Source: an uncultured Planctomycetaceae bacterium (GTDB lineage: Bacteria > Planctomycetota > Phycisphaerae > SM23-33). From it: 64,000 nucleotides of DNA. The notes under the pieces were generated by a model. The model made no database searches. It was not told the DNA's origin and saw only the letters and a list, made by a program, of their open reading frames with translations. The position numbers and the translations under genes are program-made. The stretch covers positions 16,581-80,580 of the forward strand of contig CAZSLS010000006.1 in assembly GCA_964607575.1 (NCBI GenBank), in the 5' to 3' direction. Each line of letters starts with the position of its first letter. Position 1 is the stretch's first letter. Below, piece by piece: positions 18,080 to 41,380 of this stretch.

Positions 18080-20637
18080 GACGATTCGGAATGTTGGCGT
18101 GCCTGCTCGCGTGTCTGTTTGCTTCGGTTGGACAGGCGGTCGAACCGATCCGTCTGGCAAATAAGCATATCCGGGCTGATTTCAAGTTGATCGGTGGCGC
18201 GTGGGCCAACTGTGGTCTTTCGCGGGCCGACGGGTCGGATGCGATGAGACTGGTCAGCGACGAGTTCGAGGTTCTCCTGTTTGATGACACTCGCTTCACG
18301 GCCGCAGACTACCGGGCGGGCGACCCCAAGCGAATAATCGGCAACGATGGATCGCAGGTGATGGTGATCGAGTACAAGCCTGAAGCCTCGACGTCTCCCA
18401 AAGCGCCTCGCAGGGTGACGGTCGCCTACGAGCTTGGCAAGGGACCATATCTCCGCAAGATCGTTACGATCGCGATGAAAAAAGGCGAGAAGGTCGACCG
18501 ACTGAGCGTGCTGCGATTCTCGACGTCGACAAAAGCCTCTCGCGGCGGGCGGGGCGAGGCGGTGTTCCTGGGCAACTGGTTCGTCGGGGCGGACTATCCG
18601 TGCTTCTATAGTCGGCATAGCGACGGATTTGCCAATCCCGATTATTTCTACCGCTGGGATTACATGATAGATCTCGCCGGCGGCGATAAGATTCTGGCCC
18701 CGCGCAAGGGTCTGGTGTCGGTGTTTCATTTTCCCGGATACGCCCGCTTGCAGGCCGGAGGCAAGTGGGAGATCGTTTCCAAACGTGCGGTTATCGGTTT
18801 GAGCAAGGCCAAGGGCGACAATGCGGAGTTGGCGCTGTTCGATTACATCGCCGAAACGCGAAAACCTCCTCGCAGCCACCTGCACTACAACAACTGGTAC
18901 AGCCCCGAAGGCAAGAACCTCAGCGTCGACAAGTTCATCCCGAACGTCTACAAACCCATCAACGACAAGCTGAAAAAGTACGGGGCTAAACTCGATGCGA
19001 TAGTGCCTGACCACGGATGGCAGAACACCAAGGCGTTCGAATACATATTCCAGCCGCAGGTCAACGCCACCCACTCACCGCTGCCCGAACTCGCTAAAGC
19101 TCTGATGGACTCAGGCAAAACGCACCTGGGGATTTGGATGGCGCTGGACGGGACGAACAACTCCACCGCACACGGACTGAAAATCGGCTACAAGCCCGCA
19201 TACGCCAAAGGCTTCAAACGCGAGGCCAAATGGATGGCGGGCAAGGCGTACTTCAACATACTCGACCCGAAATACCAGCGCGACCTCAAGAAGGCGCTGA
19301 AGTTCCTGATCGTCGATGCGGGAGTGGACTATATCAAGCACGATTTCAACCACAACTTCACCAGCAACTACATCTCGCAGCGTCACGCGCGCGAGGCCTG
19401 CCTCGACGTGACGCTCGGCCTGCTGAAGTACGAACGGTCGCTTAATCCGAAGGTCTACCAGAATTACACCAACGGATCGTGGTTTTCGCCATGGTGGTTG
19501 CAGCATGTAGATTCGCTGTGGATGATGTCGGGCGATTCGGGCAACTCTCGCAAGTATCCGCACCTGGCGCATCGCGACCGTTCAACGTCGTATCGCGACG
19601 AATATTTTTTCCAGAATTTCAACAACCCCCAGCGCACCGCCCGGCCGGTGATTCCGATCGCCAACTTCATGACGCACGGGATCATTTATTCAGCCAAGAA
19701 GCCCTTCACCGACGGGCACGACCTGCTGGAAAACTGGTCGAATCACGTTGTGATGTACTACGCACGCGGGACGATGGTCAAGGAACTCTACCTCACGCCG
19801 AAGCTGCTCAGCGAGGCCCAGTGGGAAGTGCTGGGGCGGGCGTCCGACTGGGCGCAGCGCAACCAGCATCGCCTGAAGAACACGGTGATAATCGGCGGGG
19901 ATCCGGGCAAGGGCGAGATTTACGGGCTTATCAGTTGGGTCGGTGGGCGGGCGATACTCACCGTTCGCAATCCCAACCGCAACGCTCAAACACTAACCGT
20001 ACCGTTCGACTGGACGGTCTACTACCGCGGCGCAAAGGGCAAGGCGTACCGGGCGCGGGCGATCTATCCGTTCGTCGAACAGATGCCCTGGGTGCTGACT
20101 TCGGGCCAACCGTTCAAAGTAACGGTCCCCGGCGACACGGTGATCGTTTACGAGATTGATCCGGGCCGACCGCCTGAGACGCCGGCGGCCGAGGCCAAAC
20201 CGTTACCGGTGACCAAGGCGACAGTCGACGGCGATGCGATCGTTATGAAGTTGCGGGTGCCTGACGAGGCGATGGAACGCTACGAACTGATCATCCAGCC
20301 GTGGGGTACAATCGACGTGGAACTCACCATCGACGGTAAGCCCGTTCCGGCCCGCCAATCATCCAAGGACGCTCGATGGAGCATCCACGCGTTCGGCCTT
20401 GCGTCATACCGCGGCAAGACGATAGCTCTCCGGGCCCGCCTCAAGGCCGACCCCGCCGCCAAGCGAAAGCCTCGCCCCAAGACTCCGACCGAAGCATGGG
20501 TCATCGCCGACCGTCCCGTAACCGCCAGGCCCGAGCCCTCCGACCGGCATCTGCCCAAACCGATCTCGCAGAACTATCGCCGAGTAACCCAAAACGTTCT
20601 GACCAAACGAAGCGTTCCGGTATCCACGGGCAAGTAG
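18076..20637 (+). CDS. secreted putative glycoside hydrolase, alpha-galactosidase-like (clan GH-D-like) TIM barrel
   Basis: Signal peptide MRRFGMLACLLACLFASVGQA. IVPDHGWQN and VDYIKHDFNHNF resemble the DDGW and (Y)IKWD(M/F)N motifs of GH27/36 enzymes. Family assignment is tentative. Confidence 0.4.
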   Translation: MRRFGMLACLLACLFASVGQAVEPIRLANKHIRADFKLIGGAWANCGLSRADGSDAMRLVSDEFEVLLFDDTRFTAADYRAGDPKRIIGNDGSQVMVIEYKPEASTSPKAPRRVTVAYELGKGPYLRKIVTIAMKKGEKVDRLSVLRFSTSTKASRGGRGEAVFLGNWFVGADYPCFYSRHSDGFANPDYFYRWDYMIDLAGGDKILAPRKGLVSVFHFPGYARLQAGGKWEIVSKRAVIGLSKAKGDNAELALFDYIAETRKPPRSHLHYNNWYSPEGKNLSVDKFIPNVYKPINDKLKKYGAKLDAIVPDHGWQNTKAFEYIFQPQVNATHSPLPELAKALMDSGKTHLGIWMALDGTNNSTAHGLKIGYKPAYAKGFKREAKWMAGKAYFNILDPKYQRDLKKALKFLIVDAGVDYIKHDFNHNFTSNYISQRHAREACLDVTLGLLKYERSLNPKVYQNYTNGSWFSPWWLQHVDSLWMMSGDSGNSRKYPHLAHRDRSTSYRDEYFFQNFNNPQRTARPVIPIANFMTHGIIYSAKKPFTDGHDLLENWSNHVVMYYARGTMVKELYLTPKLLSEAQWEVLGRASDWAQRNQHRLKNTVIIGGDPGKGEIYGLISWVGGRAILTVRNPNRNAQTLTVPFDWTVYYRGAKGKAYRARAIYPFVEQMPWVLTSGQPFKVTVPGDTVIVYEIDPGRPPETPAAEAKPLPVTKATVDGDAIVMKLRVPDEAMERYELIIQPWGTIDVELTIDGKPVPARQSSKDARWSIHAFGLASYRGKTIALRARLKADPAAKRKPRPKTPTEAWVIADRPVTARPEPSDRHLPKPISQNYRRVTQNVLTKRSVPVSTGK

Positions 20638-20951: not shown

Positions 20952-22388
20952 TTAAGTGATCCGCTCGGGCATGATCGCGTTGTTCTTCACCAGCCAGGTT
21001 TCGAGATCGGCTTTCATTTGTGCGGCTATTTTCGGGTGCTGCTTGGCGATGTTCACTTTCTCCGAGATATCTTTCGACAGATCGTACAACTCGACCGATC
21101 CGTCGAGATACCACTTGATGAGCTTGTACTTGCCTTGCCTGATCGCCCCACCCAGGCCGTTGGACCTGTGGAAGGCGTAGTTGGGGTAGTGGAAGTGGAT
21201 GGCTTTACGCGTGAGGGGCCCCTTTTGCGTCAGCAGGGGCGTGATGTCCTCACCGTCGATGATCTGTCCACGCTGCGGTTGCAATCCGGCCGCTGACAGC
21301 AGGGTCGGGTAAAAGTCCGTGCTGATAATCGGCGTGGCGCAGGTCGTATTCGGGGGCACGATCCCTGGCCAGCGGATGATGGTCGGTACGCGAATCCCGC
21401 CTTCGTAGAGGTGTCCCTTGTCCAGGCGAAGCGGTCTGTTGTCGCCCACGCCGCCGTAGGCGCCGTTGTCGGACGTGAAGATCACCAGCGTCTCGTCGCG
21501 GATGCCCAGTTCGTCGACTTTCGCGAACAGTCGCCCCATGGCCGTATCCATCGCTTCGAGCATGGCGGCGTATCGCGCGTCCTTGATGCCCGGCCCGATG
21601 CGAGACTTGTACTTCTCGATCAGCGGATTCGGCGCCTCCATCGGCCAGTGTACCGTGTAGTTCCACAGTGACAGGAAGAACGGTTGCTTTTTGGCTCGGC
21701 TGGCGGTGATGAAACTCATCGCTTCGTCGCACAGGCGGTCAGGCAGGTACTCACCGGCCTTGCGGGGCTTGAGATTGTAGATCTTGTAGGGATCCCAGTA
21801 GGTCGGCGGTCCGCCGTAGCAGCATCCGCCAATGTTAATGTCGAAACCCTGGTTCTCGGGATTGAACCTGTCGTCGCCGCGGCCTTGATCGTTGCCCTTG
21901 CGTTTCCCGCTCATGTGCCATTTGCCCATGAAGGCGGTGGCGTATCCGGCGGATTTGAGGCGTTCGGCGATGGTGACCTTCTCAAGCGGCAGGACGTTGA
22001 TTGTCTTGGCGGACTTGAGCTTGGCGCCTTTGGGCTCGAAGCGCGGGTGGTCGGGGATGTGGTTAGTGATCATCAGGCGGGCCGGCGACTGCCCCGACAT
22101 GATCGACGCCCGCGTGGGTGAGCACACCGGTGCGGCCGCGTAGGCGTCGGTGAATCGCATACCATCTTTGGCGAGCTTGTCGATATGCGGCGTGTCGAGA
22201 TTCTTGTTGCCTTGGCAGTGCAGGTCCATCCAGCCCATGTCATCGACCATTATCAGGATGATATTGGGCTTCTTGCCGGCCTTGCCGGATGCTGTCGTGG
22301 AGATTGCCTGCTTGCAGCCGCCCAGCGATACCGCCGCGGCGCCGAGTGCGACGGTTTTGAGAAATTCACGTCTGTTGTGTTGCTTCAT
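20952..22388 (-). CDS. Cys-type sulfatase (arylsulfatase family), Tat/lipoprotein signal
   Basis: NRREFLKTVALGAAAVSLGGC, formylglycine motif CSPTRASIMSG, IIMVDDMGW, GKWH. Confidence 0.9.
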   Translation of the reverse strand: MKQHNRREFLKTVALGAAAVSLGGCKQAISTTASGKAGKKPNIILIMVDDMGWMDLHCQGNKNLDTPHIDKLAKDGMRFTDAYAAAPVCSPTRASIMSGQSPARLMITNHIPDHPRFEPKGAKLKSAKTINVLPLEKVTIAERLKSAGYATAFMGKWHMSGKRKGNDQGRGDDRFNPENQGFDINIGGCCYGGPPTYWDPYKIYNLKPRKAGEYLPDRLCDEAMSFITASRAKKQPFFLSLWNYTVHWPMEAPNPLIEKYKSRIGPGIKDARYAAMLEAMDTAMGRLFAKVDELGIRDETLVIFTSDNGAYGGVGDNRPLRLDKGHLYEGGIRVPTIIRWPGIVPPNTTCATPIISTDFYPTLLSAAGLQPQRGQIIDGEDITPLLTQKGPLTRKAIHFHYPNYAFHRSNGLGGAIRQGKYKLIKWYLDGSVELYDLSKDISEKVNIAKQHPKIAAQMKADLETWLVKNNAIMPERIT

Positions 22389-22397
22389 GGAAGTTCC

Positions 22398-23855
22398 TTA
22401 CTTTGGTTTGTACTCGGGATTGGGCTTGGGGAGTTTGGCTCCGACTGACTTGAGCCATGCGGTCAGCTTTGCGTCCAGGTCGGCGACCTTTTTGGGCATT
22501 GCTGCGGATTGGTCGGTCTTTTCGGACAGGTCGTCCTTGAGATTGTAAAGTTCCCGCTTACCGCTCTCGTAGCGGCGGATGAGTTTCCAGTCGCCCTCGC
22601 GGATGATGCTGTACGGCTTGATCCGCGTGCCCCACCAGTAATGCGGGAAATGCCAGTACAGCGTCTTGCGCTCCAGCCCGCCTGTCTGCTTTAGCAGCGG
22701 CATGAGGCTCAGCCCGTCGATAGTTTTGTCGGGCAATTTGGCGCTGGTGGCGGCGGCGATAGTGGGCAGGAGGTCGATGCTGCAGACGGGCGTGTCGCAT
22801 ACCGAGCCGGGCTTGACGTTGCCCGGCCAGCGGATGATGAACGGTTCGCGAATCCCACCTTCGTACGCGTAACCCTTGCCCTTGCGAAGCGGGGCGTTGT
22901 TGGTCGCGGGGAAATGCACCGCGCCGCCGTTATCGGATGTGAAGATGAACATCGTATCGTCGGTGAGCTTGTGTTTGTCCAGGGCGGCCAGGATCCTGCC
23001 CACCGCTTGGTCAACGCTTTCGACCATGGCTGCATACACCGGGTTCTTCTGGTTGGTGGTCTTGCGTGCCCTGTACTTGGCGATGATTTCCTTCTTGGCC
23101 TGGATGGGGGAGTGGACCGCGTAGTGGGCCATATACAGGAAGAACGGCTTGTCGTAATGCTTCTCGATGAAGCCGACCGCATGCTCGGCTTCGCGGTCGG
23201 TTAGGTACTCGCCTTTCTTCCGGGGCGGGAATGTGGCGATTCCCGCGGTCTTGCCTGACCTCGAGTACGGGTCGAAGAAGCTCGGCGGGGCTCCGATCTT
23301 GCATCCGCCGAAATTGTAATCGAATCCCTGCTGGTCAGGATGCCAGCCGGGAGGACCCAGATGCCACTTGCCCACGTGGCAGGAGACGTATCCGAGCGGT
23401 TTGAGCATCTCGGGGATAGTGACCTCGTCGTGTTCGAGCCAGAACTTGCAGATTGGAGTCAGGAGCTTTCGATTGCGGTGCGGGTCGAAGCCTTCGGGGT
23501 TCTTGCGGGCTTTGGCGGCCTTTGCGGCGCGGCGGTCGTGGCAGTGGATCCAATCGGTCACGCCGACGCGGGCGGGGTATCGTCCGGTCATGACAGATGC
23601 TCGCGTGGGGCTGCAGACGGCGCAGGCGGCGTAGCCCTGGGTGAACTTCATGCCCCCGCGACAGAGGCGATCGATGCTGGGCGTCTGGTAGTACGTGCTT
23701 CCAAAGCAGCCCACGTCGGTCCAGCCCATATCGTCGACCAGCACGAGTACGACGTTCGGTTTGCGTTTCGAAGCTCTCACCGCGGCGGACGCTTGCGGAA
23801 CGACGGCGGCCGCTGCGCCGAGGCTCAAAGCTTTGAGGAAGTCGCGTCGTTGCAT
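22398..23855 (-). CDS. Cys-type sulfatase (arylsulfatase family), Tat signal
   Basis: MQRRDFLKALSLGAAAAV, CSPTRASVMTGRYP, LVLVDDMGW, GKWHLG. Confidence 0.9.
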   Translation of the reverse strand: MQRRDFLKALSLGAAAAVVPQASAAVRASKRKPNVVLVLVDDMGWTDVGCFGSTYYQTPSIDRLCRGGMKFTQGYAACAVCSPTRASVMTGRYPARVGVTDWIHCHDRRAAKAAKARKNPEGFDPHRNRKLLTPICKFWLEHDEVTIPEMLKPLGYVSCHVGKWHLGPPGWHPDQQGFDYNFGGCKIGAPPSFFDPYSRSGKTAGIATFPPRKKGEYLTDREAEHAVGFIEKHYDKPFFLYMAHYAVHSPIQAKKEIIAKYRARKTTNQKNPVYAAMVESVDQAVGRILAALDKHKLTDDTMFIFTSDNGGAVHFPATNNAPLRKGKGYAYEGGIREPFIIRWPGNVKPGSVCDTPVCSIDLLPTIAAATSAKLPDKTIDGLSLMPLLKQTGGLERKTLYWHFPHYWWGTRIKPYSIIREGDWKLIRRYESGKRELYNLKDDLSEKTDQSAAMPKKVADLDAKLTAWLKSVGAKLPKPNPEYKPK

Positions 23856-23911
23856 TTATACGCTCCTGACTAACTTCGGACGACTATAGCAGGCATGGGA
23901 CCGCAAAGGAA

Positions 23912-23940
23912 TTGAAATGCCCGCTGCAAACCGGTACGCT
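23912..23940 (+). promoter_or_regulatory. candidate sigma70-like promoter (TTGAAA-17 nt-TACGCT) for the paralog-3 operon
   Basis: TTGAAA at 23912-23917, a 17-nt spacer, TACGCT at 23935-23940, about 45 nt upstream of ATG 23986, in the divergent intergenic region shared with the sulfatases. Confidence 0.3.
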
Positions 23941-23985
23941 ATGTTAACGCAGGCGGGGTGGTTCTATACAAAGGTGAGAAACGAA

Positions 23986-26568
23986 ATGAACACAAATGGT
24001 ATCTCGAAAGTTATTTTGGGGCTGATGGTTGTTGCGTTGCTTTGCGGGCGGGCGGTCGCTGAACCCGACGCATGGACCGGAGGGGCGCCTTCGGGAGCCG
24101 CGTATCCCGAAGGGGAGGCCGACCGGCGATTCGCTACGCTGTCCCGGGATATCAAATCGCGGGCGACGATCAACAAGTTCGCCGCGGAGACTTTCCGCAA
24201 GGAGTCGATGATACTCGACACCGACCGCGACCCGCTGGACGTGGTCCTGCGCCGCAGCGAATCGCTACTTGCGGATATCGCGCGCCTGCCCAAGGCGCCC
24301 AAGCTCGACAAGATGAAGACCGAACTTGCCGCCTTGAAAACCGCCGCCGCCAAGGTCGACCCGAAGGACGCTCCGGCCCGCCGTGCGATCTTCGACAAGG
24401 TCTGCGCGCTCCGCAGGCGGATCGCATTCGCCAATCCGCTGCTGGACTTCAGCGAGATGCTGATCGTCAAGCGTCTGTTGCCTGGATACAATCACATGTG
24501 CGACCAGTACTACGGTATGGCGCAGCGTCCCGGCGGGGGACTCTACGTTCTCAGCGACGTGTTCGGAGCCAAACCGCAGATACGAAGCCTTCTGGACAAG
24601 TCGGTGGTGACCACCGGGCGTCTGAAGGGCAAGAAGCTCTCCGGCGGTCCGAATAAACTCTGGAGGGTCCGCTACAACGGTATGGGAAGCAGCGGTGGCG
24701 ACGAGACCCAGGGCGGATCGTTCCTCTCGCCCGATCTGTCGTTCGATGGTAAGACCGTCGCGTTCGCTTACGTTGAAATGACAGGCGACAGGAAGCACGA
24801 TTTCCACACCGACCCTACAAAAGGGCACTGGAGCAAGGAACGAGCCTACCATGTATTCTCCGTCGGGATCGACGGGAAGAACCTCCGCATGCTCACCGAC
24901 GGTACGTGGAACGATTTCGACCCGTGCTTCATGCCCTCGGGTCGAATCGCATTCATCACCGAGCGGCGCGGCGGATATCTGCGATGCGGGCGAGTCTGCC
25001 CGACCTACACCCTGTACGACATGGCCGCAGACGGAAGCGGTATCAAATGCCTGTCGTTCCACGAGACAAACGAATGGCATCCCAGTGTCACCAACGACGG
25101 GATGATCATCTGGACGCGATGGGACTACGTTGACCGTCACGGGCAGATTGCCCACATGGCGTGGACCACCACCCCCGACGGACGCGACCCGCGCGCCGTA
25201 CACGGAAACTACGCCACACGCAACAAGCGCCCTGACATGGAAGTCGACGCTCGTGCCATTCCCGGTTCGAACAAGTTCGTAGCCGTTGCCGCCCCGCACC
25301 ACGCTCAATCGTTCGGTTCGATGGTGATTATCGACCCCCGCGCCGAAGACGATGACGCGATGGGCCCGGTGAAGCGCGTGACACCCGACGCGGGCTTCCC
25401 CGAATCGCAGACCCACAAGCAGCGGTCGATGCTCTACGGACAGCCCTGGCCGCTGAACGAAGACTACTACATCTGCGCGTATGATCCCGGAGGAAGAGGC
25501 ACCAGCGGGACAATGTACGGAATCTATCTCGTCGATTCCTTCGGTAACAGGGAACTGATCTATCGCGACCCGGCGATCGCCTCGCAGAGTCCCATTCCGA
25601 TCAAGGCCCGCAAAAAGCCCCCGGTGATTCCGGAGATGTCCAAACGTCTCGAAGCCAATCCGCTCAAGGAGGCGACGGTCGGCGTGGTCAACGTTTACAA
25701 TGCCGACAAGCCGCTGCCCAAGGGCGTGAAGATCAAATCGCTGCGAGTTTACCAGGTCTTCCCGCTGTCGGTCGCTTCGGCGCGGGTGACCCACGCCACC
25801 GGATGCCAGATCCCACAGGCCAGGGACTCGATCAACCTGACCCGCGCCGTGCTCGGTACGGTCCCCGTCGAGGCCGACGGAAGCGCCCACTTCACCGTAC
25901 CCTCGGGCAAGGAACTGTTCTTCCAGGTACTCGACGAGAAGGGGCTGGCGGTTATGTCGATGCGGTCGGGCACGCATTTTCAGCCCGGCGAGCGTACGAT
26001 CTGCCAGGGCTGCCACGAGTCCAAATACGGAGTAGCCACCTCGCCGTCGAGGAAGGTGACGATGGCGATGAAACGGGCTCCCTCAAAACTCAAACCCGAG
26101 GCCGACGGTACCAATCCGTTCAGCTACCCGCGACTCGTCCAGCCCGTGCTGGACAAGCACTGCGTCAAATGTCACGAGAAGAACAAGGACAATAAGGACA
26201 AGACCAAGCGAACCCTCCCGCTGGATTCGAAGATCGTCAAGACGGCCCGGGGTAGTTACATGAACCCGAAGACTTCCTACTTCGTTTCGTATCTGAACCT
26301 GGCGCCGAAGTACGGTTTCTACAATTACGGCGGTAAGAATTGGAACGATCCCAAATGGTACCGGAGCACGGCCGGCGAGTTCGGAGCCCAGGCCTCGAAA
26401 CTTTATCAATTGCTCCAGAAGGGGCATTACAAGGTGAAGCTTTCGCCCGATGAGATGCGTCGCATAACCGTATGGCTGGATTCCTGCTCGCCGTTCTACG
26501 GAGTGTATGAGAAGGAAGGCGGACTGGCTCAACTCCGCGGTGAGATCGCCAAACCGACACTCGAATAA
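23986..26568 (+). CDS. secreted PD40 beta-propeller + two CXXCH motifs (propeller/CXXCH paralog 3 of 4)
   Basis: ATG 23986 follows AAGGTGAG. Signal peptide ISKVILGLMVVALLCGRAVA. Blocks FLSPDLSFDGKTVAF, FMPSGRIAFITER, HPSVTNDGMIIWTRWDYVDRH, VPVEADGSAHF...ICQGCHE, VQPVLDKHCVKCH. The N-terminal helical region is alignable with paralog 2. Confidence 0.75.
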   Translation: MNTNGISKVILGLMVVALLCGRAVAEPDAWTGGAPSGAAYPEGEADRRFATLSRDIKSRATINKFAAETFRKESMILDTDRDPLDVVLRRSESLLADIARLPKAPKLDKMKTELAALKTAAAKVDPKDAPARRAIFDKVCALRRRIAFANPLLDFSEMLIVKRLLPGYNHMCDQYYGMAQRPGGGLYVLSDVFGAKPQIRSLLDKSVVTTGRLKGKKLSGGPNKLWRVRYNGMGSSGGDETQGGSFLSPDLSFDGKTVAFAYVEMTGDRKHDFHTDPTKGHWSKERAYHVFSVGIDGKNLRMLTDGTWNDFDPCFMPSGRIAFITERRGGYLRCGRVCPTYTLYDMAADGSGIKCLSFHETNEWHPSVTNDGMIIWTRWDYVDRHGQIAHMAWTTTPDGRDPRAVHGNYATRNKRPDMEVDARAIPGSNKFVAVAAPHHAQSFGSMVIIDPRAEDDDAMGPVKRVTPDAGFPESQTHKQRSMLYGQPWPLNEDYYICAYDPGGRGTSGTMYGIYLVDSFGNRELIYRDPAIASQSPIPIKARKKPPVIPEMSKRLEANPLKEATVGVVNVYNADKPLPKGVKIKSLRVYQVFPLSVASARVTHATGCQIPQARDSINLTRAVLGTVPVEADGSAHFTVPSGKELFFQVLDEKGLAVMSMRSGTHFQPGERTICQGCHESKYGVATSPSRKVTMAMKRAPSKLKPEADGTNPFSYPRLVQPVLDKHCVKCHEKNKDNKDKTKRTLPLDSKIVKTARGSYMNPKTSYFVSYLNLAPKYGFYNYGGKNWNDPKWYRSTAGEFGAQASKLYQLLQKGHYKVKLSPDEMRRITVWLDSCSPFYGVYEKEGGLAQLRGEIAKPTLE

Positions 26569-26580
26569 ACGAGGTGGACA

Positions 26581-29451
26581 ATGCGATATCGAATCTTGCC
26601 GGCGATGCTTGTCGTGGTCGCGGTCTGTCGGACCGCGCCGGCGGAGTTCCCGTTGACCGCAAAGCCTGAAGTTGTCGAGGCGTGGAAGGATATGCGTTTC
26701 GGTATGTTCCTCTGCTGGGGACCGGTCAGCCTTACCGGTAAGGAGATCGGATGGTCGCGGGGAGCGCCCCCCTGGGGGCGCCGCAAGGGCGTTCGCGGCG
26801 GGAAAGGCCCCACGCCGGCGGCGGTCTACGACAAACTCTACACCAAGTGGAAGCCCGACAAGTTCGATGCCGAGCAGTGGGTGAAAATCGCCAAGGACGC
26901 CGGGCAGAAGTACTTGATCTTCCTGGTCAAGCATCACGACGGATTCTGTCTGTACGACACGAAGCTGACGGACTTTAAGTCTACCGGCCCGGCGTCGGCG
27001 TGGAAGGTCGACGTGATGAAGCACGTCACCGACGCCTGTCACAAACACGACCTGAAACTGATAATCTACTACTCCCAGCCGGACTGGCATCATCCGGATT
27101 TTCTCGGTGAGAATCACCAGCGATATATCAAGTATCTCCACGGACAGATACGCGAACTGCTGACGAACTACGGGAAGATAGACGGGCTCTGGTTCGACAA
27201 TCTCCGGGGACGCGGAAATAACCCCGCGGCGGCTAAGCTGTGGGACTCTGAGAAACTGTTCAAAATGGCCCGCGGCATTCAGCCGCACCTCATCATCAAT
27301 GATCGCTGCGGGCTTGACGCGGATTTCTACACGCCCGAACAGCACGTCGGACGATCGGACACAAAACGGTCGTGGGAAAGCTGCATCACCCTCGGTACGC
27401 AGTGGGCGTGGAAGCCCGACGACAAACTCAAGCCGTACACCGACGGGCTTCGGATGCTGATCCTCTGTGCGGTGGGGGATGGTAACCTGGCCCTGAACAC
27501 CAACCCCATGCCCGACGGGAGAATCGAACCGCGCCAGGTGATCAGCTTCCAGAAAATCGGAAAGTGGATGAAGAAATACGGGGAATCGATTTACGGCACG
27601 CGCGGCGGTCCGTTCATCTCGCCGGATCGCAACGCCCGCAGGTTCAACTCCGCGCGCGATGGTTTCAAACTCCCGACGAAGCGGTGGTGGGGCGGTTCGA
27701 CCTGCAAGGGCAAGACCGTCTACCTGCACATCCTCAGATGGCCTGCCGATTCGGTCACCCTCCCGCCGATAGATCGGAAGATAGTCTCGCACTCGGTCCT
27801 GACCGGCGGTAAAGCTATCGTCAAGCAGACCGCCGGCGGTATTACTGTAAGCGTTCCAAAGGACCATCGCGACGATCTGGACACAATCGTCAAACTCGAA
27901 TTCGACAGGTCAGTGGCGGGGATGGAACCTGTCAAACCGAAGGCCTATAAGCCGACTCATTGCAAAGTCAGCGAGAAGAAAGCAAAGGACGGAACCAGTC
28001 TGCTGACAGTGCGCAGGCCCGACGGAAAGACCGTCGCCGCTTACCAGGTCAAGCTCCGGCCCAACCATAGCCCCGCGACGTCTGAGGATAACGAACTGAT
28101 CAGGAAATGGCGGGAGTGGAAGTACGGAGCGTTCCTCTGTTTCAATTCAAACCAGTTCAGCGGTAAGGAATTCTGCGACATCAAGGATCCCATGCTTTAC
28201 GGTCCACAGCAATTGGATGTCAAACAATGGATTACCACCTTCAAGACCGCGGGCATGACGCACGCGGTGCTTACCGCTCGTCACACTTCGGGCTTTCTTC
28301 TCTGGGACAGCGCCACAACGGATTTCGACGTGGCCTCGAGCGGAAACAAGACCGACGTGGTTAAGGCCTACGTTCAGGAATGCAGGCGCCAGGGACTCAT
28401 TCCCGGTTTCTACTATTGCCTGTGGGGCGGTAAGAACTGTGGACCTTCAGGAAAGAAGGAGCTTCCCGGCGCTCGGGCCATGATCCTGGCGCAGCTCCAC
28501 GAACTCGCGACCCGCAACGGACATATCCCTTATTTCTGGATCGACATGATGAACTGGGCGCCGGCGGACCTGACGGCCCAGGAAATCTATGACTCGATCA
28601 AGAACGTCAATCCGCAGACAGTTGTGCTCTTCAACCAGCACATACAGGACGGTAGTCGGCTCAAGTACTTTCCAACAGATGTCATTAACGGTGAGATGAT
28701 GCCTCCGCCCGCATCAGGCCACGCCGCAAGGCGCAAAGTCGGAGACAAGACCTATTACCTTCCTTTCGAATTCGAGCCCTGCTCCCAGAGCAGGGCAGGC
28801 GGACCGGGGGGCGTATACAGGAACTATTGCTGGTTCACTTACGGCGGTGGTAAGGGGTTCGCCCCCAGCAGACCTTTTTCCGTGCGGCTTATTTACAAGC
28901 ATATCAAGCAGGCTCGCGACCGGGGCGCCAGCAATATTCTCCTGTCGTGCGCCCCCGACCATACGGGGCGGTTTCGCAAGCTGGATGTCGAGCAGATCAT
29001 CCTTCTCTCGCGCGTTATGAAAGACCCGTCGCTCTTGCCTCCGGCGCCCATTACTGCCGGCTGCAAGGCGACCGCATCAGGCGTCTGGCCGAATCCTCGA
29101 TTGGATGCGGGTTTGGCGTTCGATGATGACATGACCACACGTTGGGGCGGCGCCACCGACAGTAAATCGGGCTGGTTGGCGGTGGATCTCGGCGCCGAGA
29201 AAACGTTCGGACGCGTGTTTATCAGCGAGGCTTACGATCGGATCCAGAAGTTCGAACTGCAGATAAAGAAGGGCGATTCGTGGCGGACGTTTTATAAGGG
29301 CGCCAAGATTGGCGAGAAGTTCTCCGCGGCCTTTGCTCCCGTTACGGCGCGTCACGTGCGTTTGAATATCATCGAGGCTTCGCACGTGCCGACGATCTGG
29401 GAAGTCCAGCTTTTAGCACCCAAAGCCGCAAAGAAACGCCTACGCGAGTGA
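26581..29451 (+). CDS. tandem GH29 alpha-L-fucosidase (two GH29-like catalytic modules) + C-terminal F5/8 type C (CBM32-like) module
   Basis: Module 1: WKDMRFGMFLCWGP...AGQKYLIFLVKHHDGFCLYDT. Module 2: WREWKYGAFLCFNS...AGMTHAVLTARHTSGFLLWDS. Tail: DDDMTTRWGG...GWLAVDLG...ARHVRLNIIEASHVPTIWEVQL. Confidence 0.75.
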   Translation: MRYRILPAMLVVVAVCRTAPAEFPLTAKPEVVEAWKDMRFGMFLCWGPVSLTGKEIGWSRGAPPWGRRKGVRGGKGPTPAAVYDKLYTKWKPDKFDAEQWVKIAKDAGQKYLIFLVKHHDGFCLYDTKLTDFKSTGPASAWKVDVMKHVTDACHKHDLKLIIYYSQPDWHHPDFLGENHQRYIKYLHGQIRELLTNYGKIDGLWFDNLRGRGNNPAAAKLWDSEKLFKMARGIQPHLIINDRCGLDADFYTPEQHVGRSDTKRSWESCITLGTQWAWKPDDKLKPYTDGLRMLILCAVGDGNLALNTNPMPDGRIEPRQVISFQKIGKWMKKYGESIYGTRGGPFISPDRNARRFNSARDGFKLPTKRWWGGSTCKGKTVYLHILRWPADSVTLPPIDRKIVSHSVLTGGKAIVKQTAGGITVSVPKDHRDDLDTIVKLEFDRSVAGMEPVKPKAYKPTHCKVSEKKAKDGTSLLTVRRPDGKTVAAYQVKLRPNHSPATSEDNELIRKWREWKYGAFLCFNSNQFSGKEFCDIKDPMLYGPQQLDVKQWITTFKTAGMTHAVLTARHTSGFLLWDSATTDFDVASSGNKTDVVKAYVQECRRQGLIPGFYYCLWGGKNCGPSGKKELPGARAMILAQLHELATRNGHIPYFWIDMMNWAPADLTAQEIYDSIKNVNPQTVVLFNQHIQDGSRLKYFPTDVINGEMMPPPASGHAARRKVGDKTYYLPFEFEPCSQSRAGGPGGVYRNYCWFTYGGGKGFAPSRPFSVRLIYKHIKQARDRGASNILLSCAPDHTGRFRKLDVEQIILLSRVMKDPSLLPPAPITAGCKATASGVWPNPRLDAGLAFDDDMTTRWGGATDSKSGWLAVDLGAEKTFGRVFISEAYDRIQKFELQIKKGDSWRTFYKGAKIGEKFSAAFAPVTARHVRLNIIEASHVPTIWEVQLLAPKAAKKRLRE

Positions 29452-29472
29452 ACGCAGGTTAGGGAGTCGGTT

Positions 29473-31434
29473 ATGCGTGAAAGACTATCCGGACGTGTCC
29501 TGTTGCTCATTGCGGCAATTGGATGGTGCGTTTCGGTCTCGGCGGGCGCCGAGGGCGACAAGGCCTTAACAACCAAGCAGACCGAACTTCGGGCCAAGTT
29601 GAAAAAACTGCCGTTTAGAATCGTTTACGAGAGTTACCGGGGCAAGGACTGGGAGCTGTTCCTGATGAATGCCGACGGTTCCGCCGGTAAGAATCTCACC
29701 AATACACCCGACGCCGACGACATGTACCCCCACGCCTCGCCCGATGGTAAGCAGATATGTTTCGTCGTGGACCAGGGCAAGGGATCGGGCAAATCGCGCA
29801 GCGTTTACGTGATCGGCGCTGATGGTAAGGGGCGGCGCATGATCGCACGCGATGCCCGCCAACCGTGTTGGAGCCCCGATGGGCGGAAGATCGCCTACCT
29901 GCCGGCAGAGTTCAAGCGATTCACGCTTAAGGATTTCGCCACCAAAGGCGTGGTGGTCTTCGACCTGAAGACCGCCAAGGGCGCCCCGCATCCCAACGCG
30001 AAGCTCCATCACCTATACAACCTCTGCTGGTCGCCCGCCGGCGGGTGGTTCACCGCCACCGTACACGGAGGAATGGGCCACAAGCACGCGAATCTGGCGT
30101 TCGAGGCCGGCGGGACGAAGGTCTTCAAACTGCCCGGCGTCAATGGATGCCGCCCCGACATCAGCCCGGACGGGAAGAAAATATCCTGGAACCCCTCCGA
30201 CCATGCGATCTGCGTCGGCGACCTGCAACTAGGCGCCTCGGGGCCGAAGGTGACAAACATTCGCAAGCTTGTCACGTGCGATAAAAAACATGAGGTGTAT
30301 CACTCAGACTGGTCGCCGGACGGAAAGTACGTCGCGTTCTCATACGGGCCGAAGGGGGGCGAACAGGTTGGCTCGATGGCAAAAGGGTGGCATATCGCCG
30401 TCGCCGACGCCGCCGCGGACAACGTGTGGGTCACGGTTACCAAAGACGGTCTCTGCAACAAGGAGGCCGACTGGGTCGCCATTGCCCCGGCGGCGAGTTC
30501 GAAACAGGCGCGGTTGCGGGCGGAACTCAGCGAACTGCCGCACAAGATCGTCCATGAGAGTTATCGCAAGGGTAACTGGGATTTGTTCATGATGGCCGCT
30601 GACGGGTCGACGCCGGTCAACCTTACCAAAACGTCCGACACCCAGGAAATGTACCCGCACGCATCGCCCGACGGCAAGAAGATCAGCTTTGTTGCCGACG
30701 AGGGGACCGGCAGGGACAGGCAGCGAAACGTGTATCTCATGAACGCCGACGGGACGGGCCGTACGCTGGTGGCGAAAAACGCCCGCCAGCCCTGCTGGAG
30801 CCCCGACGCATCCAAACTGCTCTACGCCAGGGGCGAGTATAAGCGGTTTACATACAGCAGCTACGGAACGAAGGAACTGGTATTCTACGACCCGGTCGCC
30901 AGGCAACACACCCCGCACCCCAACACATCACTCCTTCACGCGACGTACCTTTGCTGGGCGCCGGGGGAGAAGTGGATTTTCGCCACCGTACACGGGGGCA
31001 TGGGCTTGAAGCACGCCGATGTAGCCATCGAGGCAAACGGTACGGGCGTATTCCGTCTCAAGCCCGTCCGCGGATGCAGGATGGATGTCCGGGCCGATGG
31101 CAGGAAAATCCTGTGGAACCTCAACGACCGCGAGATTGTCACCGCGGATATCGATTTGCAGGCCGGCCCGCCGGCAATCACGAACATCAGAACCGTCGTC
31201 AGTTGCGACAAGAAACACATGATCTACCACGGCGATTGGTCGCCGGATGGGAAATACATCGCCTTCTCGCATGGCCCGAACGGTCAGCAGCACGTCGGAC
31301 GCATGGCTCGCGGGTGGCATACCTGTGTTGCCGACGCGGCTGAGACCAACGTATGGGTAACCCTGACCACTGCCGGCGAGAGCAACAAGGAGCCCGACTG
31401 GATTCGCGTTGCGAGTGGGGATTCGAAACCATGA
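29473..31434 (+). CDS. secreted TolB-like PD40 repeat protein made of two homologous halves
   Basis: Signal peptide. RIVYESYRGKDWELFLMNADGS...YPHASPDGKQICFV recurs as KIVHESYRKGNWDLFMMAADGS...YPHASPDGKKISFV. The halves (about 29570-30480 and 30500-31420) align end to end. Confidence 0.7.
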   Translation: MRERLSGRVLLLIAAIGWCVSVSAGAEGDKALTTKQTELRAKLKKLPFRIVYESYRGKDWELFLMNADGSAGKNLTNTPDADDMYPHASPDGKQICFVVDQGKGSGKSRSVYVIGADGKGRRMIARDARQPCWSPDGRKIAYLPAEFKRFTLKDFATKGVVVFDLKTAKGAPHPNAKLHHLYNLCWSPAGGWFTATVHGGMGHKHANLAFEAGGTKVFKLPGVNGCRPDISPDGKKISWNPSDHAICVGDLQLGASGPKVTNIRKLVTCDKKHEVYHSDWSPDGKYVAFSYGPKGGEQVGSMAKGWHIAVADAAADNVWVTVTKDGLCNKEADWVAIAPAASSKQARLRAELSELPHKIVHESYRKGNWDLFMMAADGSTPVNLTKTSDTQEMYPHASPDGKKISFVADEGTGRDRQRNVYLMNADGTGRTLVAKNARQPCWSPDASKLLYARGEYKRFTYSSYGTKELVFYDPVARQHTPHPNTSLLHATYLCWAPGEKWIFATVHGGMGLKHADVAIEANGTGVFRLKPVRGCRMDVRADGRKILWNLNDREIVTADIDLQAGPPAITNIRTVVSCDKKHMIYHGDWSPDGKYIAFSHGPNGQQHVGRMARGWHTCVADAAETNVWVTLTTAGESNKEPDWIRVASGDSKP

Positions 31435-32309
31435 GGACGCCGGCGCTGATCGCTCTGCTGGCGCTGGCCGGTGCGATGGGCGTGTCATGTCAGCGGCGCG
31501 ATGACGCCGACAGCGCCAAACCCCTGCCGGTTTTCACCACCAAATCAGGCGTGGAGATGCTTCACGTACCGGGCGGGTGGTTCCAGATGGGTTCGGCTAC
31601 CGGGCAGGCCGACGAAGGGCCCGTTCACCGGGTCCGGGTCGATGCGTTTCTAATGGACAAATACGAAGTGACGCAGGACCAGTTCCGGCGGCTGGAGATA
31701 CCCGACCCGTCCCATTTTAAAGGTCCGCGGCGCCCGGTCGAGCATGCCACGTTCGCCGAAGTGGTTGAATTTTGCAACGAGCGTTCCCTGGCAGAGGGAC
31801 TCAAGCCGTGCTACAAGCTCGAAGCTTCCGGCCGCGTGTCGCACTGCAACTTCGACGCCGACGGATACCGCCTGCCCACCGAAGCCGAGTGGGAGTATGC
31901 CTGCCGCGCCGGTACGGACGCCGATCGCTTCTTTACCGGTGGGGCGGATCGGAATCTGCGGCGATACGCCTGGTATGCGGTAAACGCGGCGAAGAAGACG
32001 CATCCCGTGGGCCTGAAGCAGCCCAACGCCTGGGGCCTGTACGACATGTACGGAAACGTCGCCGAGTGGTGCAATGACTACTACGCCCCGGATTACTTCA
32101 AGACCAGCCCGGAAGAGAACCCTCGCGGCGCGCTGGCGACCAGGCTGATGGTCGTGCGCGGCGGGGCGTGGAATTCTTCGCCGGACTGGTGTCGTTCGGC
32201 GGCGCGCGGCGGAGAGAACCCGCGAGTTCACGATGTGTGTTTCACTCCCGACTCATTGGGTTTTCGCTGCGTCCGCAAAGCAGTTGCGGTCAAAACTGGA
32301 AGTAGATGA
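31431..32309 (+). CDS. formylglycine-generating enzyme (FGE/SUMF1) family lipoprotein
   Basis: Lipobox LAGAMGVSC. GYRLPTEAEWEYACRAG, NAWGLYDMYGNVAEWCND, VRGGAW. ATG overlaps the upstream stop (ATGA at 31431-31434). Confidence 0.85.
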   Translation: MRTPALIALLALAGAMGVSCQRRDDADSAKPLPVFTTKSGVEMLHVPGGWFQMGSATGQADEGPVHRVRVDAFLMDKYEVTQDQFRRLEIPDPSHFKGPRRPVEHATFAEVVEFCNERSLAEGLKPCYKLEASGRVSHCNFDADGYRLPTEAEWEYACRAGTDADRFFTGGADRNLRRYAWYAVNAAKKTHPVGLKQPNAWGLYDMYGNVAEWCNDYYAPDYFKTSPEENPRGALATRLMVVRGGAWNSSPDWCRSAARGGENPRVHDVCFTPDSLGFRCVRKAVAVKTGSR

Positions 32310-33738
32310 ACGCCTGCCCGCCGGCGGTGACGCAGGTGGCCATGTAAACGATCATGGCGACGACCAGTGCAATCCGCACAGGTGCGGGCTCAAGCAGGCT
32401 GCGGAGGCGTGACTCGTAGATGTACTGGTATGCCCAAACCGCCACGACCAGGCCCGCGGCCAGCAAGGGGAATCTCGGATCGGACCAGCCTCCGGTGGCG
32501 ATACGGCTGACGATTAACCATGCGTCGGAAACGGTTTCCGCGCGAAAGAATATCCACGCGAAAGTGACGATCGAGAACGTAATGAGCTGCTTGACCGCTC
32601 TGGGGACGTGTTTGCGGTAGAAAACTGTACCCTCCAGGCCCCGTGTCAGCAGGCGCCCGACCGCGTGGACCGCACCCCAGAGGAAGAACGTCCACATCGC
32701 CCCATGCCACAACCCCGAGATGAGCATCGTCAGGACCATATTTACGTAGGTGCGGAACTTCCCGCGCCGATTGCCCCCCAGCGGTACGTAAACGTAGTCC
32801 CGGAACCATGTCGACAGGCTGATGTGCCACCGCTGCCAGAAGTCCCCCAGCCCGTCGGCCAGATAGGGATTGTTGAAGTTGAGCATCAGGCGGAAACCCA
32901 TCATCCGCCCCAGCCCGCGGGCCATGTCCGTGTATCCGCTGAAGTCGAAGTAGATCTGCCAGGCGAACGCAAACGTTGCCAGCAGCAGGGCGGGCGCTCC
33001 ATATTCCCCCGGAGCGCCGTAGCACGGATTGACGTACATCGCCAGGTAGTCGGCCAGGGCGATCTTCTTGAACAGGCCCACCACGAACAGCGACGCACCG
33101 TCGGCTGCATCGTGCGGAGTTATCTTCGTATCGGATCGCAATTGCGGCAGGAGGTTACTTGCCCTTTCGATCGGTCCGGCGACCAGTTGCGGAAAGAGCG
33201 AGACGAACGTCGCGTAGCGTATGAAGCTGGTTTCTCGCTGGACGCGGCCGCGGTAGTAGTCGATCGTGTAGCTCATCGATTGGAACACGAAAAACGAAAC
33301 GCCCAGTGGCGGCAAGTCGATCGGCGACATCGTCCAACTCAGCCCCATCGAGGCGGCGAGGTAGTTAATCGTGGTGCTCAGGAAAGCGAAGTTAGGCTGG
33401 CTCAGGACAAAGGGCAGACCAAGCCAGGCGGCAAGGGCGTTCAGGTTGTCGACGAAGAACTGACCGTACTTGAAGAAACCCAGCAGCAGCATATTGTTGA
33501 CGATGCTGCAGGTCAGCCAGGGCTTCTTCCAGCGTGTCTTGGCCATCGCGACTACGGCCAGGTAATCGACCGTCGTGGACCAGAAGATCAGCAGCAGATA
33601 GAGCGGGTTGGCATATCCGTAGAAGGCGTACGACGCCAACCACAGCCACGGCGCCTTCAACCGCGTGCGTTTGAGCAGAAGAAAGACCGGGTATACAACG
33701 AGGAAGAAAGCCAGAAATATCCAGGTGTGGAAGAGCAT
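32290..33738 (-). CDS. MBOAT family O-acyltransferase (AlgI/DltB-like)
   Basis: Polytopic membrane protein with WQRWHISLSTWFRDYVYVPLGGNRRG and the conserved His in LISGLWHG. Confidence 0.85.
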   Translation of the reverse strand: MLFHTWIFLAFFLVVYPVFLLLKRTRLKAPWLWLASYAFYGYANPLYLLLIFWSTTVDYLAVVAMAKTRWKKPWLTCSIVNNMLLLGFFKYGQFFVDNLNALAAWLGLPFVLSQPNFAFLSTTINYLAASMGLSWTMSPIDLPPLGVSFFVFQSMSYTIDYYRGRVQRETSFIRYATFVSLFPQLVAGPIERASNLLPQLRSDTKITPHDAADGASLFVVGLFKKIALADYLAMYVNPCYGAPGEYGAPALLLATFAFAWQIYFDFSGYTDMARGLGRMMGFRLMLNFNNPYLADGLGDFWQRWHISLSTWFRDYVYVPLGGNRRGKFRTYVNMVLTMLISGLWHGAMWTFFLWGAVHAVGRLLTRGLEGTVFYRKHVPRAVKQLITFSIVTFAWIFFRAETVSDAWLIVSRIATGGWSDPRFPLLAAGLVVAVWAYQYIYESRLRSLLEPAPVRIALVVAMIVYMATCVTAGGQAFIYFQF

Positions 33739-33755
33739 ATAGTCGTTCTGCCAGG

Positions 33756-34883
33756 TCAGTCTCCGGCGAAGCGAATGAACGCCTCATTGGCGAGCAGTTG
33801 TCTTGCCAGCAGCACATAACCTTCGTCGAGGGGATGGCTGGCGTCGGCGTAGGTCCCGCTGGGCAGCGGTTTGGGAACGTAGTGCGGGATATCGTGGTCT
33901 CCGAGCCAGGTGTGGGCTTTGGCGGTCAGAGTCATGTAAGCGGCGAGGCTTCTTTTTGTGAGCATGTGCTCGTTGAACGGCCCGACCACGACGAACACGC
34001 GGTTGCCCCTGGCGGCCAGGATATCGATGGTTCGCTTGAAGCATCGCCATTGGAACGAATCGTCCAGGTCGACCCATGGCGGGTCGAACTGACCGATATC
34101 CTTTTCAATCCATGGGCGAATGTCGGGCTTGGGCGTTGGCGGCTCATCGGGCGAGGGAAGCTTCAGCGTTATGGCGTCGGCGGGATTGGCGCGAGGGTTG
34201 TCGATCGTCCAGGTCGGCAGGTCGGAGTTGTCGAAGTATGCGATGTGCATATGATCGGCCCAGGCGAAGACGGGGACTTTGCGGGCGATCAGCACGCCGA
34301 GGCGATGAGCTTTCGGGCGGTCGTAACACTCGGGGCGCTGGATGAATTGGCCGATGAGGTCCGGATGGTTTATCGAGCGTTCCTTACCGCCGGACAGATC
34401 GCCTCTGGGCGAACTCATCCACAGGAGGTTGCAGTGCAGGATGACTTTCCTGCCCGAGATGCCCCGCCCGTAGTGTTCCATCAGTCCGGCCAGTGCGGCT
34501 GGATGGATACCGTCGACGCCCATATTGGCAAACCGAGCGTCACCAGGCGCCCTGTTAAGGTGGGCCGGAAGCGTTTGGTCCTTGCCGACAAAGTGGCCCC
34601 AAATGACCGAATCGCCCACGACCAGCGTAGTGTCGCGGTCGGCGGAGATCTTGTCGCAGTAGCGGTCGTACGTCCAGTAATCGTTGCCGAGGCTGAACGG
34701 CATGCGGTGGTTGGTCTCGATGCGGATCGGCTCGATCTGCTCCCAGGCGAAAGGAATCGCCGCCAGGATCGCAGCCGCGATGCCCAGCGCAATGATCCAC
34801 TCACGCGGTGAGAGGCGCACATTGTTGGCGGCAAACGGCGTGTCATCAGAACTGCTGTCGCTTGCTGTGTCTCTATGACCCAT
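33756..34883 (-). CDS. membrane-anchored SGNH/GDSL-like partner of the MBOAT (putative acyl-transfer or esterase protein)
   Basis: One N-terminal TM segment (WIIALGIAAAILAAIPFAW). GDS block TLVVGDSVIWGHF. Sits 17 nt upstream of the MBOAT gene on the same strand. Confidence 0.45.
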   Translation of the reverse strand: MGHRDTASDSSSDDTPFAANNVRLSPREWIIALGIAAAILAAIPFAWEQIEPIRIETNHRMPFSLGNDYWTYDRYCDKISADRDTTLVVGDSVIWGHFVGKDQTLPAHLNRAPGDARFANMGVDGIHPAALAGLMEHYGRGISGRKVILHCNLLWMSSPRGDLSGGKERSINHPDLIGQFIQRPECYDRPKAHRLGVLIARKVPVFAWADHMHIAYFDNSDLPTWTIDNPRANPADAITLKLPSPDEPPTPKPDIRPWIEKDIGQFDPPWVDLDDSFQWRCFKRTIDILAARGNRVFVVVGPFNEHMLTKRSLAAYMTLTAKAHTWLGDHDIPHYVPKPLPSGTYADASHPLDEGYVLLARQLLANEAFIRFAGD

Positions 34884-38623: not shown

Positions 38624-38654
38624 GGTATCGCCTTTCTGGCGGGGGGTGTGGGTG

Positions 38655-39953: not shown

Positions 39954-39984
39954 AGTCGACTCCGTTATCTCAGGTTGCTTTATG

Positions 39985-41262: not shown

Positions 41263-41380
41263 AGTTGGTTCCCTTATCTCTGGTCGCGATGATTGTATCC
41301 GGATCGACGCTTCGGATAAACCACGATTTGGTTCCAATTTCGTGGTAGAATATCGGCGTTGACGGAAAGGAGCCAAAGCC

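Follow-up and report, generated by a model that had tools for sequence, protein, structure and literature searches.

A sulfatase and fucosidase cluster of a planctomycetal contig adjoins a conserved set of propeller, FGE-fold lipoprotein, MBOAT and DltD-like SGNH genes

The window analysed here is a 64-kb stretch of contig CAZSLS010000006.1 from an uncultured Planctomycetaceae bacterium, and the subject of this report is a block of 11.4 kb within it (20952-32309; all positions follow the numbering of the window) that an initial annotation had presented as one polysaccharide utilisation locus (PUL)-like locus for sulfated fucan. The genes lie where that annotation had placed them: a listing of the open reading frames (ORFs) with their translations gives the same coordinates, the public gene calls on contig JASLPU010000016.1 (GCA_030744825.1, a seawater metagenome-assembled genome, MAG) agree with them, and a near-identical JGI contig exists. 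Two sulfatase genes on the minus strand diverge, across an intergenic region of 130 bp (23856-23985) that is as had been described, from four plus-strand genes encoding a protein related to HzsA, an alpha-L-fucosidase, a double beta-propeller and a lipoprotein with the fold of the formylglycine-generating enzyme (FGE); the spacings of 12 nt, 21 nt and a 4-nt ATGA overlap between these four are likewise as first given. The end of the block at 32309 comes too early for the locus as a whole, as the 3' end of the FGE-like gene overlaps by 20 nt the convergent MBOAT gene (32290-33738), ORF 33756-34883 comes next, and both belong to the locus too. It is argued below that the block is probably the junction of two units: a lineage-specific Unit A (20952-29451) and a phylum-wide acyl-transfer module, Unit B (29473-34883).

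Unit A opens with two sulfatases of the Cys-type, formylglycine-dependent class, both S1_16-like and both with twin-arginine (Tat) leaders. The first (20952-22388, minus strand) matches PF00884 (E 1.4e-58) and SGSH_C, with a weak TAT_signal match and a possible lipobox, and the second (22398-23855, minus strand) matches PF00884 (E 3e-59) and SGSH_C; the two are about 42% identical to each other. The class assignment and the CSPTRAS motifs of the initial annotation are both borne out, with the C-x-P-x-R signature reading CSPTRAS in each protein, at residue 89 of the first and residue 81 of the second. For both the nearest solved structure is 9fo1, 'k-carrageenan sulfatase S1_16' (E 7e-124 for 20952-22388 and 1.3e-136 for 22398-23855), and the S1_16 entries 6ust, 7oza and 7oz9 fall within the top 14 PDB matches. 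All four structures are S1_16, a subfamily with known activities on Gal-4S, GalNAc-4S and GalNAc-6S (PMC11760155). In planctomycetal fucoidan loci S1_16 enzymes are frequent and one is induced on fucoidan, and the fucose-sulfate families named for such loci are S1_17/22/25 (PMC11685898). The substrate first proposed, a sulfated fucan, is thus plausible as far as a sulfated and fucosylated glycan is meant, but the sulfatases resemble S1_16 and not the fucose-sulfate families, even though S1_16 enzymes do occur in fucoidan loci. Since S1_16 is associated with sulfate esters of galactose-type residues, the substrate could equally well be a pure fucan or a different sulfated polysaccharide with fucose, such as a galactofucan.

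The fucosidase of Unit A (26581-29451, plus strand) is an exported protein with the architecture GH29, GH29-like, CBM32-like, so that the double GH29 with a CBM32-like module of the initial annotation is upheld. The first GH29 domain matches PF01120 over residues 30-335 (E 1.6e-67), the second and more divergent one around residues 538-690 (E 1.4e-19), an F5/8-type-C module lies C-terminally at residues 830-941, and the top PDB matches are GH29 structures; the motifs 'LWFD' and 'FWID' were picked out by eye. In a related locus (L086; loci are numbered with L and proteins with P) the orthologue has 589 aa and consists of domain 1 and the CBM only, followed by a third sulfatase gene, so that the second GH29 domain of the window protein was inserted in this genome specifically. 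The label 'PUL-like' fits in the loose sense of a cluster of CAZyme and sulfatase genes, but not in the Bacteroidota sense, as none of the large ORFs in the window has a SusC/SusD-like transporter domain. Unit A resembles the planctomycetal and verrucomicrobial fucoidan loci (GH29/GH95/GH141 with S1 sulfatases) in that an exported GH29-CBM32-like protein stands beside S1 sulfatases, with S1_16 abundant in those loci; unlike them, it is small, with two sulfatases and one fucosidase, and its block has no endo-fucanase (GH107/GH168), no S1_17/22/25-like sulfatase, no regulator and no transporter. Most likely, the exported proteins of Unit A would act on a sulfated, fucosylated marine glycan, removing its fucose and the sulfate of galactose-type residues, and this sulfatase/GH29 part is ordinary for marine Planctomycetota.

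Between the divergent region and the fucosidase gene lies the remaining member of Unit A, an HzsA-related protein (23986-26568, plus strand) with a Sec signal, a beta-propeller, an HZS-alpha middle domain (PF18582, E 1.6e-23) and two CXXCH motifs, at residues 673 and 726. Both motifs align with the two haem motifs (alpha-I and alpha-II) of hydrazine synthase alpha, 5c2v_A, and the pair is invariant in 25 orthologues at 58-85% identity. The likeness to HzsA thus extends over the propeller, the HZS-alpha middle domain and the two C-terminal CXXCH motifs; unlike HzsA, the protein is not accompanied by beta or gamma subunit genes, its host is not an anammox organism and its paralogues carry carbohydrate-binding modules. 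Its score on NF052339 is 56.7, far under the cut-off of 800. A tyrosine at H+4 after the first CXXCH, the place of the proximal Tyr in HzsA, is present in the window protein and unconserved in the orthologues, and the idea of a proximal Tyr was dropped. According to a study from 2025, none of the HzsA homologues has a confirmed function (PMC12758564), and the literature searched for HzsA-related proteins in glycan contexts held nothing specific.

It is possible that this dihaem propeller catalyses redox chemistry on glycans that are sulfated or fucosylated, and so is the founder of a new class of carbohydrate-active enzymes, given that its gene lies directly upstream of GH29, that the window encodes four paralogues, two of them with CBM32-like or NPCBM modules, and that members across Planctomycetota and Verrucomicrobiota are 57-94% identical. 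The four PF18582 genes are at 455-4354(+), 8974-11514(+), 23986-26568(+) and 48097-51273(-); the product of the first has a C-terminal F5/8-type-C (CBM32-like) module and that of the last an N-terminal NPCBM, and the same fusions recur in the protein database, where relatives number more than 3889 and some have fused NPCBM or F5/8-C modules. The genomic contexts are varied. Orthologues at 68-78% identity were found in three, namely beside a sulfatase and PQQ propellers, beside GH43 and GDPD, and beside nothing relevant, while at 79 metagenome loci the 116 immediate neighbours of HzsA-related genes span 106 Pfam families, the commonest being a sulfatase (7/116), with GH29 in 2/116. Neither set contains a conserved partner. 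The only pointers to glycans for the family are a mild enrichment of sulfatases and the recurrent NPCBM or F5/8-C fusions. A redox role on glycans is considered improbable. A URO-D-like protein, 5170-6201(+), adjoins the first paralogue, and URO-D occurs twice among the 116 metagenome neighbours.

Unit B starts with a plus-strand gene (29473-31434) for a protein with a Sec signal and a Pfam match to PD40, in which two TolB-like six-bladed beta-propeller modules are fused. The internal repeat is free of gaps, with residues 31-335 and 340-644 identical at 170 of 305 positions (56%). For an AlphaFold model of the second half (predicted local distance difference test score, pLDDT, 92.5) the top fold match is the TolB propeller 1c5k (E 1.5e-15, TM 0.69), and each module of about 305 aa is modelled as a single helix and a six-bladed propeller, without the N-terminal domain of TolB; the score of the protein on TIGR02800 is 102.6, under the cut-off of 343. 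No tol or pal genes were found among the neighbours in the window or at the synteny loci described below. Single-module homologues of about 360 aa number more than 4800 proteins, and some homologues are fused to PF03781 (P0028, P0105) or to a GH2_N-type sugar-binding domain. The NCBIfam model TIGR02171, a Fibrobacter lipoprotein family, matches both the propeller protein and the FGE-like protein of the window and seems to represent a naturally fused form of both.

For the synteny of Unit B, an alignment of propeller homologues was scanned over one genome per species, where 432 stretches encode a relative, and the best 80 of these loci were fetched with 10-kb flanks and compared with the window proteins by tblastn; the denominators that follow are the loci with room to see the feature in question. 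Propeller genes are present at 80/80 loci, as one to three separate copies upstream of an FGE-like gene, which lies directly downstream of the propeller in 66 of 69 cases with a median gap of 90 nt. An MBOAT gene lies on the propeller strand at 48 of 51 loci and a homologue of ORF 33756-34883 after the MBOAT at 47 of 49, and when the DltD-like protein encoded by that ORF was made the anchor instead the same cluster was recovered (L168, L169). Within 10 kb of the propeller, GH29 occurs at 1/80 loci, an HzsA-related gene at 1/80 and any sulfatase at 7/80, and the other flanking genes are not conserved. The loci come mainly from Phycisphaerae/Sedimentisphaerales, Pirellulales and Planctomycetaceae, with one MAG each labelled Brocadiia, Verrucomicrobiota and Armatimonadota. 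The coupling of propeller and FGE-like genes, which had been thought a non-standard arrangement, is therefore the rule in Planctomycetota (66/69) and extends to gene fusions, with MBOAT and a DltD-like SGNH protein as partners. Because these partners recur across loci without GH29 or sulfatase, the block is read as two units and not as one. Conserved synteny of the whole five-to-six-gene block was seen in close relatives (75-86% amino acid identity) and is absent beyond them, with GH29 and HzsA-related genes at one of the 80 loci each.

In those relatives the genes upstream of the propeller, a sulfatase pair diverging from an HzsA-related gene, GH29 and, in some, a further sulfatase, are stable at 75-86% identity and not beyond, and the full arrangement includes a different GH29 and an extra sulfatase. 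The window, two related loci (L003, L086) and a JGI contig have the propeller modules fused in one ORF, no histone-deacetylase-type (HDAC) domain and an MBOAT-SGNH pair inverted relative to its Unit B partners, which makes it converge on the FGE-like gene and overlap it by 20 nt. It was considered that the two propeller halves are the upstream and downstream copies of other loci joined together; this was rejected, both halves being nearer to the FGE-proximal copy (31/32 comparisons for half 1 and 26/32 for half 2).

The second gene of Unit B (31431-32309, plus strand; PF03781, E 1.7e-49) encodes a lipoprotein of 292 aa that has the FGE fold and, judged by its sequence, is not a formylglycine-generating enzyme. 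Its top PDB match is Tvp1 of Treponema denticola (2y3c, E 1.4e-37), whereas true FGEs match its C-terminal half only, at E ~1e-19 to 1e-20 (best 6.5e-20), and its top NCBIfam scores are for GldK/PorK and PvdO, all under the cut-offs. When aligned to the FGE of S. coelicolor (6muj/2q17), GGSYLCHDSYC corresponds to GGAWNSSPDWC, so that the first catalytic, copper-binding Cys is a Ser. At this position 51 of 71 homologues from the clusters have Ser and 5 have Cys, the Ser state is kept in genomes without a nearby sulfatase, and the second catalytic Cys is lost in 12 of the 71. The protein shares with FGE/SUMF1, Tvp1, PorK/GldK and PvdO the PF03781 fold, including the C-terminal 'RGG.W...R' core; unlike FGE/SUMF1, it is without the first copper-binding Cys, has a lipoprotein signal, is nearer to Tvp1 and in most other genomes is fused to an HDAC domain. 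Tat substrates are folded before export. Given that the window protein has a lipoprotein-type export signal and the sulfatases carry Tat signals, it is unlikely that a periplasmic maturase acts on these sulfatases. The maturase role assigned to it in the initial annotation is, as far as sequence analysis can, refuted by three observations: the family-wide replacement of the first catalytic Cys by Ser, the closer match to Tvp1 (1e-37) than to FGEs (1e-20), and the lipoprotein signal.

These results bear directly on the possibility that the block is a single operon for using sulfated fucan, with the FGE lipoprotein as maturase of its sulfatases and the propellers as new accessory factors of fucan breakdown. 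The tight spacing with its ATGA overlap, the presence of sulfatases, GH29 and a PF03781 protein side by side, the same order in close relatives and the occurrence of S1_16 sulfatases in planctomycetal fucoidan loci would all suit such an operon. However, this is very improbable for three reasons: first, the Ser at the first catalytic position, its retention where no sulfatase is near and the distant match to true FGEs speak against maturation, as does the export of the protein as a lipoprotein, which would hardly act on Tat substrates. Second, the synteny of the block is absent in 79 of 80 genomes. Third, it is with MBOAT and SGNH genes that the propeller and FGE-like genes are consistently associated.

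Transcription of the block was considered separately from its function. Within the divergent region, the promoter candidate of the initial annotation, TTGAAA-17-TACGCT at 23913-23941, is present as stated and is weak: it matches 8 of 12 positions of the sigma-70 consensus, a consensus promoter scan does not report it, and promoter-like sites across the region are at chance level, with 6 found against 4.9 +/- 1.8 expected from shuffled sequence. A terminator scan, whose counts were likewise at chance level, found no terminator-like site in the plus-strand junctions, and Shine-Dalgarno-like purine runs precede the second and third plus-strand genes. No RNA run searched for the region holds it; only seawater DNA metagenomes do. 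Judged by this packing, a single transcript of the plus-strand genes is plausible, and the propeller and FGE-like genes may be transcribed by read-through from the promoter of Unit A while having no part in the function of that unit.

Orthologues of the FGE-like protein in most species are longer, at about 620 aa, and join PF03781 to an HDAC-type deacetylase domain (PF00850); the fusion was found in 51 of 87 ORFs (PF00850, E 7e-102; for example L012:10974-12836 and L169:5692-7551), and the HDAC domain is missing in the window, L003, L004 and L022. The gap of about 1 kb between the FGE-like and MBOAT genes at most other loci was at one point taken to hold a separate gene; this was rejected, as the gap is the in-frame HDAC domain of the FGE-like protein. 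Three stand-alone HDAC ORFs (L063:12972-13958, L070:2022-2993 and L080:5064-6026) are without a signal peptide, and an internal start codon is possible. A family of about 520-620 aa with no Pfam match recurs between FGE-like genes (L057:5408-7258, L013:11776-13440, L169:1641-3410 and L087:9941-13331).

The remaining two genes of Unit B, on the minus strand, encode a candidate acyl-transfer pair. The first is a PatA/AlgI-type MBOAT acyltransferase (32290-33738; PF03062, E 1.4e-19), which scores 146.6 on the TIGR04091 DltB model (E 1e-42), far under the cut-off of 375. Its catalytic His stands in 'RWHIS', kept in 49 of 50 MBOATs from the clusters, and its last residues, FIYFQF, agree with the FxYxxF acyl-shuttle motif, with FIY.QF kept in 46 of the 50. 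In PatA the Tyr of FxYxxF is auto-acetylated from acetyl-CoA and the acetyl is then donated to the SGNH partner (PMC12148441). The second is its putative partner, a membrane-anchored DltD-like SGNH protein (33756-34883) identified by the fold of an AlphaFold model (pLDDT 85.5, with an N-terminal membrane-anchor helix at residues 25-49); the ORF has no match in Pfam or NCBIfam, and its homologues, more than 2063, are all annotated 'hypothetical'. The top fold matches are DltD structures (6pfx, E 3.5e-7, then 6o93, 7dxm and 3bma, with E to 1e-3), followed by GDSL/SGNH esterases and PatB, and the residues G89-D90-S91 and D346/H349, the GDS and DxxH motifs, are invariant in 41 homologues. In some relatives, at 80% identity, the SGNH protein continues into a C-terminal PD40 propeller (L087:8001-9944, that is P0123, and P0122, P0124 and P0126). 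Downstream of this SGNH-PD40 gene at L087 come genes for two paralogues (510 and 613 aa) without a Pfam match and then one for an FGE-like lipoprotein.

The pair is comparable with several described systems. It shares with PatA/PatB of peptidoglycan O-acetylation, AlgI/AlgJ/AlgX and WssH/WssI an MBOAT with a catalytic His and a C-terminal FxYxxF, adjacent to a membrane-anchored SGNH protein with a Ser/Asp/His triad; unlike PatB and AlgJ, the Unit B SGNH protein is nearest in fold to DltD, and the conserved accessories, the TolB-like propellers and the FGE-fold lipoprotein with or without HDAC, are not known from any described system. With the Dlt system (DltABCDX, D-alanylation of teichoic acid) it has in common that the SGNH protein resembles DltD and that the MBOAT scores on the DltB model. 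Unlike in that system, no DltA, DltC or DltX was found among the neighbours in the window or at the 80 loci, and the MBOAT has its own shuttle motif, as do MBOATs that use acyl-CoA. No description of the propeller/FGE/MBOAT cluster was found in the searchable literature.

It is very likely that Unit B modifies an envelope polymer. By analogy with MBOAT-SGNH pairs such as PatAB, we infer that the MBOAT would draw on a cytoplasmic acyl-CoA for an acyl group (probably acetyl), load it on the Tyr of its C-terminal FIYFQF and hand it to Ser91 of the SGNH protein, which would pass it to an extracytoplasmic polymer of the envelope. Because of the fusions, the propellers and the FGE-fold lipoprotein may work physically with the SGNH protein, as periplasmic partners for binding the acceptor or presenting it. 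Where the HDAC domain is present it would remove acyl groups, which suggests that deacylation is also part of the process. Downstream of the cluster at two loci (L168:10220-12361 and L169:10607-13050) are a major facilitator superfamily (MFS) transporter and a sugar deacetylase (PIG-L at one of them, CE4 Polysacc_deac_1 at the other), which hints at an N-acetyl-sugar polymer as the acceptor. In the lineage of the window, the MBOAT-SGNH pair has undergone an inversion, and the glycan genes have come to lie immediately before the propeller gene. That Unit B is as a whole an undescribed, phylum-wide machine for both acylating and deacylating the envelope is a tentative proposal, though one ranked as more probable than a redox role of the HzsA-related protein on glycans.

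It is possible that Unit B is instead a structural complex of the envelope, like Tol-Pal or PorK/GldK, in which the propeller binds the FGE-fold lipoprotein and the MBOAT-SGNH pair is a mere neighbour, given that the propeller matches TolB best in fold and that PorK/GldK and GldJ are FGE-fold lipoproteins that match the window protein. However, the propeller lacks the N-terminal domain of TolB and there are no TolQRA/Pal or type IX secretion system genes nearby, MBOAT and SGNH genes co-occur in the same orientation at about 95% of loci and some relatives join the SGNH protein and a propeller in one polypeptide, and the fusion to HDAC points to chemistry over scaffolding, so that a purely structural role is improbable.

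The arrangement in the window raises a further possibility, that in this marine lineage the propeller/FGE-fold pair has lost its HDAC domain, has been uncoupled from MBOAT-SGNH by the inversion and now serves the glycan unit, for example as a periplasmic pair for glycan binding or scaffolding. The absence of HDAC together with the inversion of MBOAT-SGNH in the window, L003 and L086, the gap of just 21 nt to GH29 and the stability of the arrangement across contigs at 75-86% identity are consistent with such co-option, and the FGE fold is a C-type-lectin-like fold. Nevertheless, the MBOAT and SGNH genes still lie directly alongside, are intact and encode every catalytic motif; the propeller and FGE-like sequences are 50-60% identical to those of canonical clusters; and at L004 the HDAC domain is lost with neither inversion nor adjoining glycan genes. 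Co-option is therefore rather unlikely, though less so than a structural complex or a single operon.

The interpretation as a junction of two units with an acyl-transfer function for the second has several points to answer. The propeller gene begins 21 nt after the GH29 gene with no terminator-like site between, and this adjacency is kept in three related contigs, so that a lineage-specific functional recruitment of the propeller and FGE-like genes is possible. The best-scoring 80 of the 432 loci may over-represent clusters of the canonical form. The topology of the HDAC domain is inconsistent, given that the fused forms would be periplasmic and a signal peptide is missing from the stand-alone ones; the acceptor is not marked by any DltA/DltC-type or polymer-synthesis gene; and for Unit A the S1_16 assignment depends on PDB neighbours. 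On balance the junction of a lineage-specific glycan unit and a phylum-wide acyl-transfer module is still held to be the probable one.

Other genes surround the block. Upstream, a DDE transposase ORF, 17321-18079(+), overlaps the start of an 892-aa ORF, 17959-20637(+), which has no match in Pfam, NCBIfam or the PDB; in a related contig the equivalent place upstream of the sulfatase pair is taken by an 853-aa protein with no Pfam match, with a GH20 gene between it and the sulfatases. Beyond Unit B, 34901-41712(-) encodes a 1293-aa protein with HEAT repeats and a 3-keto-disaccharide-hydrolase (DUF1080) domain and then two GFO/IDH/MocA oxidoreductases with Tat signals, a trio that adjoins Unit B in L086 too and in L087, where just one of the oxidoreductases is kept. 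Another small glycan cluster, at 41381-45584(+), comprises a GH62-like protein, a GH29 of 502 aa, an alpha/beta hydrolase and a xylose-isomerase-like TIM-barrel protein, and at the end of the window, 59201-63305(-), are genes of lipopolysaccharide-core type for a GT9 heptosyltransferase, a Kdo/WaaP-family kinase and a GT4 glycosyltransferase.

In summary, PF03781 proteins that stand beside planctomycetal sulfatases should not be read as maturases, which bears on how sulfatase-rich genomes are interpreted. The HzsA-related family is a highly constrained protein repeatedly fused to carbohydrate-binding modules and a candidate enzyme family. The set of TolB-like propellers, FGE-fold lipoprotein with or without HDAC, MBOAT and DltD-like SGNH protein is conserved and almost wholly annotated as 'hypothetical', with over 2000 protein clusters for the DltD-like component alone. 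It very likely modifies an envelope polymer, in a phylum for which the biology of the cell wall is under debate, and the tyrosine of the MBOAT, the serine of the SGNH protein and the HDAC domain give handles for genetics and biochemistry.

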